DNA from: an uncultured Methanosarcinales archaeon
Lineage (GTDB): Archaea > Nanobdellota > Nanobdellia > Woesearchaeales > BS150m-G63
Length of the DNA: 44,323 nt
Direction: 5' to 3'
Assembly: GCA_964630685.1 (NCBI GenBank)
Contig: CAZVVW010000007.1
Coordinates: forward strand, 1 to 44,323
Made by a program: the position numbers. This document shows, one piece after another, positions 39,001 through 42,000 of the stretch (position 1 is the stretch's first letter; each line of letters starts with the position of its first letter).

Positions 39001-42000
39001 TAGGCTTCTATAATCTAAAATTGCAATGTTTTCATACATACCAGCTTGGGGTTCATATACAAAAGCACCTTTGTAAGTTAACATCCTCCTTTGTTTTATA
39101 TCTTCATGGCCTGGTTTATTGGGGATTAATTCATTAAAATTATAACTCTGATTCAATAAATACGCCTCTACTAATTGACTAAATCCCATTCTTACTACAT
39201 TGTAGGGTAACATTCCCACAATTTTTACTAGTTCCAATATATTAGGCATTAATTTTTTAGCTAAATTATAAACTAGTAAAGAATCTCTTAAGTTATACTT
39301 GCAATAAATTTCTAACTCTGTGGATTTATTATCCCATGCATTTGCCAACCCATCTAAATCTGCATCTACTTTTTCTTCATTTAGCAATTCTTTAGATACA
39401 GAATCAAGATCATACCTATCTGTATCCATTGTTCTGCCTATAACTCTTCTAATAAAACTAAAAATATCTAGGTGCATTATTCCCTTAATTTTTGCATTAG
39501 ATATATCTCTTTTAGTTACAGCTAAATTAGAATAATCTAACCCTAAATCAAGTTTGATTTTATATTTTTTAGCTCTTGTTTCAATATAAGGCATATCAAA
39601 CCCATCAGAAAAATAACCCACTAATGCTTCTGGTTTGTAGTGTCCTATTACTTCTTTAATTTTTTCGATAAGTTCTACTTCACTATCTACAAATTCAATA
39701 TATTTTTCATTTGTTTTGAATTTTTTCCAAGTGATGACTTTTTCAAAATTTTTACCATAAAAACTAACCATTATGATGGGATATTTTTCAGGCTCAATTC
39801 CTTTTCCGGCAGGATTATAGGTTTCAATATCAAAACCAAGCATTCTTGGTTCTTTTAGTGCATCTTCACTAAATTGTTTAATACTGTCTGCCTTAAACAC
39901 ATCGACTCGTGATTTTTGATTTACAAATTCACCTTCTACTTCTACTAAAGTAATAGGGGTTATTTTATTATCGACAAGATATCTTCTTAAAAAAGGAATA
40001 TCTACTTCATATATATTCTCTATAGAATCCCATTCTTGTATCACTTTGGAAATTTTTGAAATTGCTTTATGGACATTTACATAAACTTTAATCAGATTGA
40101 GTTCTTTTCCATGTCTTTTTTTGGTTATATTTTCTGTTTTAATTACTTCATAATTATTTTTGTTTTCTTTTTCCAGGTCTCCTTCTTCTTCTAGTTTTAA
40201 TTTCCCTATTTTAATTATTAAACTATCTATATCATTTTCTCGTTTAGGTTTAACTAAAAAATAAGGAGTGAATGTATCATCAATTACAGTAATCCTTTTA
40301 TTATTTGATTGTCTTCCAAATAAATAAACCACAGACTTATTATCTACTTCTTTATAGTCCATGTCATATGGATAGAACTGTATTTTTACCATAAGATAGC
40401 CTAAAAGAGCCAAATTTATAAAATTGTCGAAAATTTACTTAAAAAAGCAATATTTATAAACAAATTAAATCTTCTAAACAGTGATTGTGGGCCTGTAGCT
40501 CAGTCTGGTTAGAGCGCTGGTCTTATATGACTACGCTTTAAACAAAAAGCACCTAAGACAGCCAGAAGTCGCGAGTTCAAATCTCGCCAGGCCCACCTTT
40601 ATATTAATTAATTATTTTAAATTAATGAGATTAATCAAAAAAATTACAAAGTGATTAAATCAATGCAGTTGATTTACATCGCTTCTCTGTGGCTACGGCA
40701 GAAAACGTAGGTTCCAAATCTCGCCAGGCCCACCTTTATATTAATTAATTATTCCAATACATTAATGTTCTCACAATGATAACCAAACTAAAAGAGGAAT
40801 TACGAAAACAGGCAACCCCTGAACAAGCAAAGATATTGCAGAGATTCTTTAAAACAGGTAAAGGAGAATATGGAGAAGGAGATGTTTTTCTAGGAATAAA
40901 AGTTCCAATACAGAGAAAAATAGCAAAAAATTATTTGGGAATTTCGTTAAGAGAATTGCAAGAACTCTTAGATACAAATATACATGAATATAGATTAACT
41001 GCATTAGTTATTTTAATTAATAAATATAATAATTCAACTGAAAAAGAAAAAAAAGAAGTTTATGAATTTTATATTCAAAATCTGGAAAATATAAACAACT
41101 GGGATTTAGTTGATATTTCATGCCCCAATATTGTAGGAAATTATCTTTATTTTCAACCAATAATCAGTGTAAAAAAAATATTGCAACAACTTGCTATCTC
41201 AAAGAATCTTTGGAAGAGAAGAGTTGCGATAATTTCAACACTTTTTTTTATTAAACAAGGTAGATTCGGAGAAACATTAGGTATTTCTCAGATGCTTCTA
41301 AAAGATGAGCACGATTTAATACACAAAGCAGTTGGGTGGATGTTAAGGGAAGTTGGAAAAAAGAATCAAGAAGTAGAAGAAAGATTCTTAAATAAATACT
41401 ACAAACAGATGCCAAGAACTATGTTAAGATATTCAATTGAGAGATTCAGCGAGGAAAAAAGAAAGTATTATATGAAAAAATAATCTCTTTTTAGTAATCT
41501 TTATAAATAAATCAATAAACCCACACTAACACGCCCCTGTGGTGTAGTCCGGTCAATCATTCCAGATTTTCGATCTGAAGACCCGGGTTCAAATCCCGGC
41601 AGGGGCACTACTTTTCACATTTTTCTTTTGAATTAAAAAACCCATCAAAAAAGAAAAAATAAATATGATTGAAGAAATATTTAAAAAACATTATTAATTA
41701 TTCTCAAAATAAAGTATTAAATGGGAGGTGTTGAATACATCAATTATGTTGATAATTGTTTTGATGGATATGTCCAAGATAAATTAAAAGAATTTTCAAA
41801 TAAAAATTATGATATTTTTAAAGAAGCTTATGATTATGCCCATAAAAAAACTTTTGAAAGATTTAAAGAAATTTAAACTTTTTAATTTAAATGATTAATC
41901 ATTCCTAAATAAAACCTAAAAAATAGAAACACTTAAAAAGGGTGCTCTTTTCCTGCTCAATATCAGAGAATATTAATGTTTGTTATTTCTGAGTTGAGTT

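Follow-up and report, generated by a model that had tools for sequence, protein, structure and literature searches.

Short repeats that follow tRNA genes and carry a second copy of the tail of the upstream gene have been described in Escherichia coli. These tRNA-linked repeats (TLRs), reported by Egan and Landy (1978) and Rudd (1999), both as cited by Stenum et al. (2021, PMC8144298), bear the names RtT family (Rfam RF00391), rtT/rttR and rrA/rrB/rrF, and number 22 at 10 loci. In the excerpts of Stenum et al. (2021, PMC8144298) on which we draw, no function is known for TLRs except for the three 5S-linked members RrA/B/F, where read-through transcripts are processed near the repeat, and the same excerpts give no account of the origin of these repeats, which were mapped in E. 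coli more than 40 years ago. We find that the TLR units of E. coli K-12 repeat the final 18-19 nt of five different tRNA genes, from A58/A59 onwards, together with at least 23 nt of trailer, and that strains differ by the presence or absence of one entire 168-nt unit. Our literature searches returned no description of such an element in archaea, and the phrase 'tRNA-linked repeat' led to bacterial papers only.

Several other types of insertion invite comparison. Eukaryotic SINEs are non-autonomous and show a constant 3' end, 5' truncation, a variable target duplication and carry-over of 3' flank, the four traits that form the classical signature of target-primed reverse transcription. Casposons integrate at the 3' ends of tRNA genes with a duplication of 14-15 bp. 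They are characterized as Cas1-dependent transposons in the excerpt of Béguin et al. (2016, PMC5137440) used here. A hallmark of archaeal integrative elements is an insert flanked by direct repeats of a tRNA 3' end (Sugahara et al. 2012, PMC3293823). In the att repeats of tyrosine-integrase elements of the SSV and pNOB8 types, the tRNA stays intact.

Materials and Methods

The genome under study (G000) is that of a tiny, uncultured marine archaeon, named Methanosarcinales in GenBank and placed in the Woesearchaeales by GTDB (GCA_964630685.1; completeness 96.6%), and coordinates are given on contig CAZVVW010000007.1, of which the whole stretch of 44,323 nt that was analysed is called the window. 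G001 is the genome of a sister species and G002 a further genome without the element. The tRNA genes were called with ARAGORN, which yields 35 tRNAs in G000 and misses tRNA-Lys(CUU). Copies were sought across G000 by single-sequence nhmmer with the Ile(UAU) element as the query. Covariation was assessed on an alignment of 15 distinct copies, and RNAfold was applied to a set of 20 distinct copies. The main-type copies listed comprise 22 from G000, G001 and the contigs L061 and L117; L061 begins within an element, and the upstream tRNA is deduced there from the tail copy.

Results

The element behind tRNA-Ile(UAU)

The tRNA-Ile(UAU) gene is placed at 40489-40597 by ARAGORN with introns and at 40489-40595 by Rfam, and it is 98% identical to its G001 orthologue. 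The genome-wide survey's note had described a non-coding repeat behind this gene, combined with a copy of the tRNA tail, and we recover this arrangement as a perfect 39-nt direct repeat with a spacing of 137 (Table 1). No unambiguous left edge can be set for the second repeat copy, since the element itself ends in ...GGTTCCAAATC. The repeats enclose a structured body of 98 nt (40617-40714). Its 3' module has a stem of 4-5 bp, in which TCTG (40686-40689) pairs with CAGA (40699-40702), and the loop CTACG (40693-40697) could pair with CGTAG (40706-40710). By eye this module resembles a preQ1-type pseudoknot, a likeness that the Rfam search does not support.

Table 1. Positions of tRNA genes, direct repeats and element modules in the window
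Feature	Positions	Strand	Evidence
tRNA-Ser(UGA) with intron, second occupied tRNA in the window	6668..6785	-	ARAGORN
Second family member in the window, behind tRNA-Ser(UGA)	6517..6678	-	nhmmer, E 5.6e-10
Ser(UGA) element, repeat copy 1	6656..6678	-	23-nt repeat
Ser(UGA) element, body	6540..6655	-	23-nt repeat
Ser(UGA) element, repeat copy 2	6517..6539	-	23-nt repeat
tRNA-Ile(UAU), 32-nt intron, insertion target	40489..40596	+	ARAGORN with introns; Rfam RF00005, 63.2 bits
Direct repeat copy 1: final 19 nt of the tRNA, from T-loop C56 through the discriminator, plus 20-21 nt of trailer	40578..40616	+	repeat search, 100% identity
A/T-rich leader, family consensus about ...CAATCAAAGTAATCAATTAAAGA..., weakly conserved at Ile(UAU)	40617..40650	+	copy comparison
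Hairpin 1 (type a), about 12 bp, one bulged T, short loop	40651..40682	+	RNAfold
Conserved 3' module, ending in GTAGGTTCC	40684..40715	+	alignment of 15 distinct copies
Direct repeat copy 2: tRNA 3' end and trailer again	40715..40753	+	repeat search; sequence single in the sister species

The element is confirmed by a 158-nt Logan unitig that covers 40587-40744 with 0 differences (3 public runs from 2 studies). Because the 39-nt repeat exceeds the word size (taken as 31), filled and empty alleles would share unitigs and polymorphism is unreadable; the body/flank depth ratios of 5.6/9.1, 4.7/5.4 and 4.2/4.8 are not usable as cell shares. The nearest relative of the element is a copy in G001 (86% identity), the best within G000 reaching 77%, so that the donor is not visible in the G000 assembly.

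At the Rfam gathering threshold, the window contains only tRNAs besides chance-level matches, and a search of 10 element loci with 4227 families at E up to 5 gave no match to the element, whether riboswitch, ribozyme, group II intron, C/D, H/ACA or RtT. The RF00391 covariance model in particular has 0 matches at E up to 5 in the 10 element-bearing loci; in the E. coli K-12 control it has 16, of which 13 are over the cut-off. A TATA-like promoter of the element's own, as suggested in the survey's note, is not supported: the conserved leader is unlike the TTTATAAA / TTTTAAAT boxes, the TATA consensus found about 30 nt upstream of G000 tRNA genes. Among 17 runs, no RNA data set holding the element was found.

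Family members and copy numbers

Eight further copies were detected in G000 (E 2e-12 to 2e-5), each directly 3' of a tRNA gene and in the orientation of the tRNA; the repeat lengths in this genome are 39, 23, 21, 25, 30, 17, 12 and 13 nt. Two tandem 145-nt units lie behind tRNA-Ser(GCU), and the tRNA copy is missing from the degenerate elements at Lys(UUU) and Phe. An exact second copy of at least the final 11 nt is found within 450 nt of 9 of the 35 ARAGORN-called tRNAs, against a chance expectation, by our own arithmetic, of about 1e-4 per tRNA. The figure of 11 tRNAs with an element given previously is reached when tRNA-Lys(CUU) and the two degenerate copies are added to the ARAGORN-based set, and our recount also arrives at the 14 copies reported, namely 10 of the main type and four of a palindrome subtype. 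There are at least 13 copies in G001 and a single one in G041; the loci number 11 in G000 and at least 10 in G001, with 1-3 units per locus. Each of the 22 main-type copies listed lies behind a tRNA gene or a tRNA remnant and shares its orientation, and one body family is present at no fewer than 17 different tRNA genes, each with its own tail and local trailer.

BLAST comparisons with 41 and then 401 genomes of the order (two candidates per genome scored in the latter) found the family only in G000 and G001, besides short A/T-rich matches, and a word scan of species genomes added one further genome. Word scans of viral contigs gave two chance-level loci without a tRNA and then 0, 0 and 0.

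Junctions and turnover

Across the family, the re-copied target begins at about tRNA position 55-64 (55-59 or 62-64, that is, in the T-loop or the 3' T-stem) and extends to 0-21 nt beyond the gene, with a tRNA part of 10-19 nt. The repeat is 12-39 nt long, or up to 52-66 nt when the leader of an older element is counted. The earlier description of a long duplication of variable length, beginning in or after the T-loop, is in line with the differing repeat lengths, and its designation as a target-site duplication in the transposase sense is unsupported. The element's 3' end is constant and its 5' leader is truncated to a varying extent, being short or absent in the Pro and Cys copies of G001. 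At Ser(UGA) in the window, the sequence reads CAAATCTCA up to the junction and GGCG after it, which places the junction in the T-stem, not in the T-loop. The bases CAAATCT(C) are carried over in four copies (Ser(UGA) of G000; Ser(UGA), Ser(GGA) and Gly(UCC) of G001), and CAAATCT and CAAATCTC, seen in several copies, fit an Ile-type T-stem, not that of the present host. The T-loop-like word at the end of the element is, at least in part, a carry-over from earlier tRNA hosts. The palindrome subtype, found at Thr(UGU) and Lys(CUU), is without this word and joins inside the T-stem. By our own count, a TTCAAATC T-loop is present in 8 of 9 occupied versus 11 of 24 readable unoccupied G000 tRNAs, so T-loop sequence predicts occupancy only weakly.

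In an alignment with G001, the Ile(UAU) locus of the sister species is empty and has the repeat once, as had been stated before; compared with that species, the element is inserted DNA. Empty orthologous sites are found in both directions, which bears out the earlier claim that a modular element was inserted: all five G001-occupied loci examined are empty in G000 and three G000-occupied loci are empty in G001, a comparison made without an outgroup in which gain and precise loss are indistinguishable. The Ser(GCU) and Thr(UGU) loci, both occupied in G000, are without an element in G001. Behind tRNA-Ser(CGA) there are two units on the metagenome contig L117 and one in G001, and the extra unit adjoins the tRNA; in arrays, the new unit is the one next to the tRNA. 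The tRNA copy of the G001 Pro element has drifted from its tRNA.

Hairpin modules and covariation

The position of hairpin 1 is taken by other hairpin types in other copies, and at the orthologous site of the Phe copy this hairpin is swapped between the two species. The differing sequences keep pairing, as the survey had noted, through compensatory changes in the stems. In the 3' module, the counts at two pairs are CG 9 / GC 5 and GC 11 / CG 3 / UA 1 among the 15 distinct copies, and the covariation score was reached in 0 of 500 shuffles. With RNAfold, the tRNA-sense strand folds better than the antisense strand in all 20 distinct copies (mean -22.7 versus -18.4 kcal/mol), an asymmetry of which base composition could be a partial cause.

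Candidate enzymes

In G000 there are no matches to RVT_1 or Y1_Tnp, nothing over the cut-off for Cas12f/TnpB-type proteins (sub-threshold zinc-ribbon matches only), and two Phage_integrase genes, both of which are also present in the element-free G002 and neither of which adjoins a copy. Cas1 (PF01867) has no match in G000, G001, G002 or G041. Two candidates in G001 were rejected: a reverse transcriptase of a diversity-generating retroelement, which has a template repeat and variable repeats of its own and does not resemble the element, and a Y1 gene in an IS200-like insertion within an hsdM-like gene, with unrelated hairpins. No terminal inverted repeats were found at the element ends in the repeat search, the inverted pairs being A/T-rich trailer words only, and nhmmer revealed no larger element with the same ends in G000.

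Discussion

Comparison with described systems

The layout of the element has a precedent in that of the E. coli TLRs. Both immediately follow a tRNA gene (for TLRs, a tRNA or 5S gene) in the same orientation, repeat the tail of the upstream gene from the T-loop, with trailer, at their 3' end, form tandem units (1-5 per locus for TLRs, 1-3 for the archaeal family) at several loci, have one body family behind several tRNAs, each with the local tail, and are gained or lost between strains as whole units. However, there is no sequence or covariance-model similarity between the two; the host is an archaeon, with tRNA genes that do not encode CCA; and the archaeal family swaps hairpin modules, has a T-loop-like word before the tRNA copy, has junctions that slide into the T-stem and shows a much higher turnover between sister species.

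Other resemblances are more limited. As with archaeal att repeats, a tRNA 3' repeat flanks the insert and the tRNA is intact, whereas, unlike integrative elements, the insert has about 100 nt and no gene, occupies many tRNAs with a variable, target-derived repeat and has no associated integrase that we could find. Casposons share the choice of the tRNA gene 3' end and an unusually long duplication, but Cas1 is absent in the four genomes searched, the duplication length is not fixed and no terminal inverted repeats were noticed by eye. The non-autonomous archaeal element has the constant 3' end, 5' truncation, variable duplication and 3' flank carry-over of SINEs; it differs from them in the absence of a reverse transcriptase in G000, of an A-tail and of any internal promoter that we recognised, and in its strict targeting of tRNA tails. 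Like MITEs and REP/PATE-type repeats, it is short, non-coding, hairpin-rich, multi-copy and intergenic, but unlike MITEs it has no terminal inverted repeats that we noticed, a duplication of 12-39 nt that is not short or fixed and an orientation locked to the tRNA, and unlike IS200/IS605-derived PATE/REP it has a duplication and no Y1 or TnpB partner in G000. An archaeal tRNA intron, in contrast, lies inside the tRNA at a bulge-helix-bulge, and this element is outside an intact tRNA gene.

Origin and spread of the family

We consider that there is about an even chance that this is a young family of structured, non-coding elements of about 100-140 nt, so far of one genus, which is an archaeal, TLR-like, non-autonomous insertion element and spreads by copy-choice. 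Such spread would probably be anchored on the conserved T-loop, in a copy process (copy-choice or template switching) held at the 3' end. A DNA 3' end left by a break or a stall immediately behind a tRNA gene under heavy transcription would anneal through microhomology to the A/T-rich leader of a donor; the donor would be copied through the 3' module into its own tRNA piece; and, at the T-loop sequence common to tRNAs, copying would switch back to the target tRNA gene, on another copy of the chromosome, so that the 3' end and trailer of the target are copied again. Loss would proceed by recombination between the flanking repeats and would restore an intact site. The conserved covarying hairpins imply selection on structure, which a purely passive repair accident leaves unexplained and which calls for an RNA function or a protein acting in trans. 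Transcription of the element probably takes place together with that of the tRNA or by read-through from it, and the tRNA-tail copy may be a signal for 3' processing, a role that has been proposed for E. coli RrB.

A trans-acting protein is the core of a rather unlikely alternative, enzyme-catalysed transposition of a non-autonomous element, in which the enzyme would act in trans, for example from a plasmid or virus, and be absent from the assembly; it might be a reverse transcriptase primed on a T-loop nick, as in SINE-like target-primed insertion, or a nuclease or transposase making a widely staggered cut in the tRNA gene. The four SINE-like traits listed above are the signature of its target-primed version, a protein could recognise the conserved hairpins with their bulged T, and G001, the genome with the most copies, has a reverse transcriptase. 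That enzyme, however, is part of an ordinary diversity-generating retroelement dissimilar to the element, the hairpins of the IS200-like gene are unrelated, G000 gave no match for RVT_1, Cas1, Y1_Tnp or TnpB, and no module is present on any viral contig scanned. The same repeat layout is also found in E. coli K-12, a strain that is not known to carry a reverse transcriptase. An origin as scars of tyrosine integrases, with the repeats as attL/attR and the roughly 100 nt as a remnant or passenger of larger tRNA-targeting integrative elements, is disfavoured and in our estimate very improbable. It would account for the repeat hallmark described for archaeal integrative elements, for the two integrase genes in G000 and for the addition of new units next to the tRNA, but the spread of one body family over at least 17 tRNA genes, with a gene-specific repeat at each, indicates that the target, not the element, is the source of the repeat; moreover, repeat length and junction vary, the integrase genes also occur in the element-free genome away from any copy, and no larger element with these ends exists in G000.

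Selected RNA is also what the covarying stems and the better-folding sense strand suggest, and the family might not be mobile now but an old, host-useful small-RNA or processing module, its tRNA-tail copy kept as a 3'-end processing signal and the species differences due to losses by recombination between the repeats and to exchange between copies. In the excerpts of Stenum et al. (2021, PMC8144298), the E. coli RrA/B/F TLRs are small RNAs that arise by processing and show in vitro binding to Hfq and CsrA, which is in keeping with this possibility, as is the ease of precise loss through repeats, for which the 168-nt E. coli unit is a parallel. We nevertheless regard it as distinctly unlikely, given that among 401 genomes of the order (two candidates per genome scored) the family was not seen beyond one genus, that the word-scanned species genomes added only one further genome with it, that occupancy is nearly non-overlapping between two sister species, that shared sites bear different hairpin types, and that some copies are degenerate and the tRNA copy of the G001 Pro element has drifted.

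Implications for tRNA gene tails

An unrelated archaeal family with the layout of TLRs, for which clear empty sites in a sister species, copy differences at the population level and readable junctions are all at hand, suggests a general process acting on tRNA gene tails and offers fresh events for working it out. More tentatively, and with considerable doubt, TLR-type elements might constitute a class of selfish DNA that spans bacteria and archaea and settles on tRNA gene tails through a so far undescribed insertion route, keyed to the universally conserved T-loop, that re-copies the stretch from about A58 to the transcript end, perhaps via an RNA intermediate. If so, the young and fast-moving family described here would be the first to allow a comparison of fresh insertions with empty sites, and with it an explanation of the origin of the E. 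coli TLRs, which have been known since 1978. For annotation, copies of tRNA tails should not be assigned by default to integrase att sites.

The family also bears on tRNA gene disruption in DPANN archaea. A second intact tRNA-Leu(GAG) was looked for and not found in G001, and one tRNA-Leu locus of this genome appears wrecked around such an element.

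The element at tRNA-Ile(UAU)

The genome under study (G000; 0.94 Mb, 31% G+C, 35 contigs, 96.6% complete) is represented here by contig C7, which carries intron-bearing tRNA genes and, at its end, the start of an archaeal SSU rRNA. Behind tRNA-Ile(UAU), a perfect direct repeat brackets a non-coding element. The first repeat copy runs from C56 of the T-loop through the discriminator into approximately 21 nt of trailer, and the 98 nt between the copies begin with an A/T-rich leader, continue with a hairpin of 12 bp that has a bulged T, and close with a conserved 3' module whose final word is GTAGGTTCC. 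No ORF of at least 40 aa overlaps the element on either strand. The junctions are not an assembly artefact of this genome because a 158-nt unitig present in 3 public runs from 2 studies matches this region with 0 differences. Upstream of the tRNA gene, a 21-nt imperfect direct repeat (TAAAAGAGCCAAATTTATAAA / TAAAAAAGCAATATTTATAAA) surrounds a TATA-like box.

Features at the tRNA-Ile(UAU) locus (window coordinates)
Feature	Position	Remark
Upstream imperfect direct repeat	40402-40460	around TATA-like box
tRNA-Ile(UAU)	40489-40596	32-nt intron
Direct repeat, copy 1	40578-40616	39 nt, perfect
Direct repeat, copy 2	40715-40753	39 nt, perfect
Matching unitig	40587-40744	158 nt
Nearest downstream gene	40776	start

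Insertion and turnover between sister species

In the sister species (G001; of the same genus, 85% complete), the orthologous locus carries a single repeat copy and no intervening sequence, in an alignment that extends through the tRNA (98% identity) and the downstream gene. The element at Ile(UAU) is an insertion relative to the sister species; the genome-wide survey's note had reported this empty locus and proposed an insertion with a variable, target-derived repeat; the finding itself is confirmed, and that reading is essentially right. The five aligned loci that are occupied in G001 (Gly UCC, Ser CGA, Pro, Cys and Ile GAU) are all empty in G000, and the Ser(GCU) and Thr(UGU) loci contain the element in G000 and none in G001. 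tRNA-Ser(CGA) is followed by two units in L117, a metagenome contig close to G001, versus one in G001, the extra unit being the one that adjoins the tRNA. At the Phe locus of G001, two young units are located between the tRNA and a degenerate unit that is common to G000. New units thus join at the tRNA side, and which tRNA genes are occupied changes quickly. Without an outgroup, gains and precise losses are formally indistinguishable as sources of the differences in occupancy. Loss via recombination between the flanking repeats would restore the site and accounts equally well for the empty alleles. No copy was detected in a further genome compared, G002 (79% complete, unpublished).

Anatomy of the element

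The junction between the element and the tRNA copy slides among the copies. Where the tRNA loop differs from the element end, the copy can be seen to start at position 55 (Arg), 58 (Trp, Tyr) or 59 (Cys), and in six copies it starts within the T-stem, at positions 62-64. Four of these six are preceded by CAAATCT, CAAATCTC or CAAATCTT, which fit the T-stem of Ile tRNAs and not that of the present host; we read the T-loop-like word as flank that was probably carried over from earlier hosts. In most clean cases the repeat ends 0-5 nt beyond the gene, and at Ile(UAU) in the window 21 nt beyond it; where a new unit stands in front of an older one, the repeat reaches 52-66 nt into the older leader.

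The 3' end of the element is constant and the 5' end variable. The A/T-rich leader is complete in the Gly UCC, Ser GGA and Ser CGA copies; Phe has part of it, and Pro and Cys have next to none. Hairpin 1 comes in at least six sequence types, each of which keeps the 12-bp stem with one bulged T, and is exchanged between copies, even at the orthologous Phe site. The 3' module, constant across copies, contains a 4-5-bp stem whose two central pairs, in an alignment of 15 distinct copies, are CG or GC (9 and 5 copies) and GC, CG or UA (11, 3 and 1). The covariation score of this stem was reached by 0 of 500 shuffles, and its pairing amounts to 76%, against 25-54% in slid controls; the stems are under selection. 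Pairing is possible between GCTAC in the loop and the invariant GTAG(G) downstream; the result would be a longer, alternative hairpin or else a small pseudoknot, and these pairs vary too little to discriminate between the two. Of 20 distinct copies folded as RNA, all 20 have the sense (tRNA) strand as the more stable of the two; the copies are related, and base composition may contribute.

Copies and distribution

With the single element as query, nhmmer identified eight further copies in G000. Together with the palindrome subtype and degenerate copies the total is 14, behind 11 tRNA genes and as two orphans, the same count as in the survey's note. Nine of the 35 tRNAs called by ARAGORN in G000 are followed within 450 nt by an exact second copy of at least their last 11 nt. 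tRNA-Lys(CUU) (L133; G000 C13:7000-7350), with introns inside the T-loop and after the anticodon, has no ARAGORN call. In G001, copies are found behind Gly UCC, Ser CGA, Pro, Ser GGA, Ser UGA, Ile GAU (two units), Phe (three units) and Cys, and at a broken Leu locus.

Outside the genus, BLAST against 41 relatives yielded only A/T-rich matches of 19-38 nt, and BLAST against 401 genomes of the order (two candidates scored per genome) yielded four matches of 27-34 nt (E 3e-5 to 7e-5). The 18-base word AAAC(N)GTAGGTTCCAAATC occurs at 32 loci in a collection of 185,579 species, where about 35 matches are expected by chance according to our own arithmetic. Extended similarity to the family was found by nhmmer at eight of these loci, labelled Woesearchaeota, and at L061; the other 23 are bacterial and match in the word only. 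L061 (G041 C1:1-113), the only copy found in G041, occupies the first 113 nt of a 665-kb contig labelled Methanosarcinales. It belongs to the 16S-23S spacer, where the tail of tRNA-Ala(UGC) follows it, ahead of the 23S rRNA. The contig end cuts the element short, and the rRNA-spacer sequence of the contig resembles that of G001 despite the label. Five of 38 metagenome loci are true family members, all from one assembly, and no member was detected in scans of viral contigs.

The tRNA-Leu(GAG) orthologue in G001 (L015 1340-1600; compare G000 C3:27400-27485) appears badly disrupted: its 5' acceptor strand and D-arm survive, along with a hairpin-rich insert of 130 nt, and an element body stands in place of the anticodon, variable and 5' T-arm portions. 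Behind the element, the tail copy has diverged (CCCATACA versus CCCTCGCA), and no intact Leu(GAG) gene was found elsewhere in the 85% complete genome. Neither of the two palindrome-subtype orphans (L135 and L136; G000 C1:96150-96500 and C10:26550-26850) adjoins a tRNA, and one lies directly against the stop codon of a gene in convergent orientation; this subtype may thus also serve as a terminator or insert at terminators. Hairpin 1 of the orphans differs from that of tRNA-linked copies by compensatory changes.

Comparison with the tRNA-linked repeats of Escherichia coli

This kind of element is known from Enterobacteria. According to Stenum et al. (2021; PMC8144298), E. coli has 22 tRNA-linked repeats (TLRs) at ten loci, one to five per locus, with no known function since 1978 except for RrA/B/F, read-through transcripts that bind Hfq and CsrA in vitro and whose processing site lies 3 nt past the repeat. 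The RtT model (RF00391) detects 16 copies in E. coli K-12. There, tRNA-Tyr, Pro(CGG), Lys (two loci) and Ser(GGA) are followed by units that repeat the last 18-19 nt of the respective tRNA, from A58/A59 onwards, plus at least 23 nt of trailer. Among 25 records of the proK locus sampled down the match ranking, 12 match in two pieces, span about 583 versus 751 bases and have no RtT annotation. One such shorter record, aligned to K-12 (L155 / L163), lacks exactly one 168-nt TLR unit, bounded by the repeat, behind tRNA-Pro(CGG); in this allele, two-thirds of a TLR, from its 5' side, still follow the terminator. From the tail and trailer repeats of K-12 and this strain difference of one unit it follows that the archaeal and E. 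coli elements are the same in layout and behaviour. However, no homology was detected, as the 10 archaeal element loci searched, at E values up to 5, match neither RF00391 nor any other Rfam family. In the literature searched, we found no report of such an element in archaea.

Mechanism and candidate enzymes

We infer that insertion is most likely a 3'-anchored copying event. A site-specific crossover in the T-loop would yield a chimeric tRNA without the target-derived repeat, and cut-and-paste by a transposase would leave a fixed stagger, whereas the repeat varies in length and the junctions slide with carry-over, so that both are disfavoured relative to copying. Using host functions only, copying could proceed by two template switches: a 3' end left in the target gene's trailer by a break or a stall would first move to the leader of a donor and then, at the conserved T-loop, return to the target gene on another chromosome copy. 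Such a route is compatible with E. coli K-12 as well, but it gives no explanation for the conserved hairpins; these may make the RNA useful or stable, stall a polymerase or bind a protein, for which no candidate was found. An unseen reverse transcriptase or nuclease acting in trans would explain the hairpins better and the gene inventory worse than the two switches.

As for that inventory, searches for RVT_1, Cas1 and Y1_Tnp gave no match in G000 (96.6% complete), and the TnpB/Cas12f domain gave only zinc-ribbon matches below threshold. Two tyrosine-recombinase genes are present in G000 and in G001, none of them beside an element copy, and both are also found in the element-free G002. The reverse transcriptase of G001 was rejected as the enzyme of the element: it belongs to a standard, complete diversity-generating retroelement (L021 1-2250, G001 C3), absent from G000, with a 347-aa reverse transcriptase, a target gene containing the variable repeat (583-668) and a template repeat (1090-1175) that is 84% identical to it. 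The HUH gene of G001 was likewise rejected as part of an IS200-like insertion with unrelated G+C-rich hairpins. This transposase gene (L128 1400-2100, G001 C13) encodes 165 aa and is flanked by G+C-rich terminal hairpins. It seems to have interrupted an hsdM-like gene, a 61-aa N-terminal ORF being all that remains of the latter.
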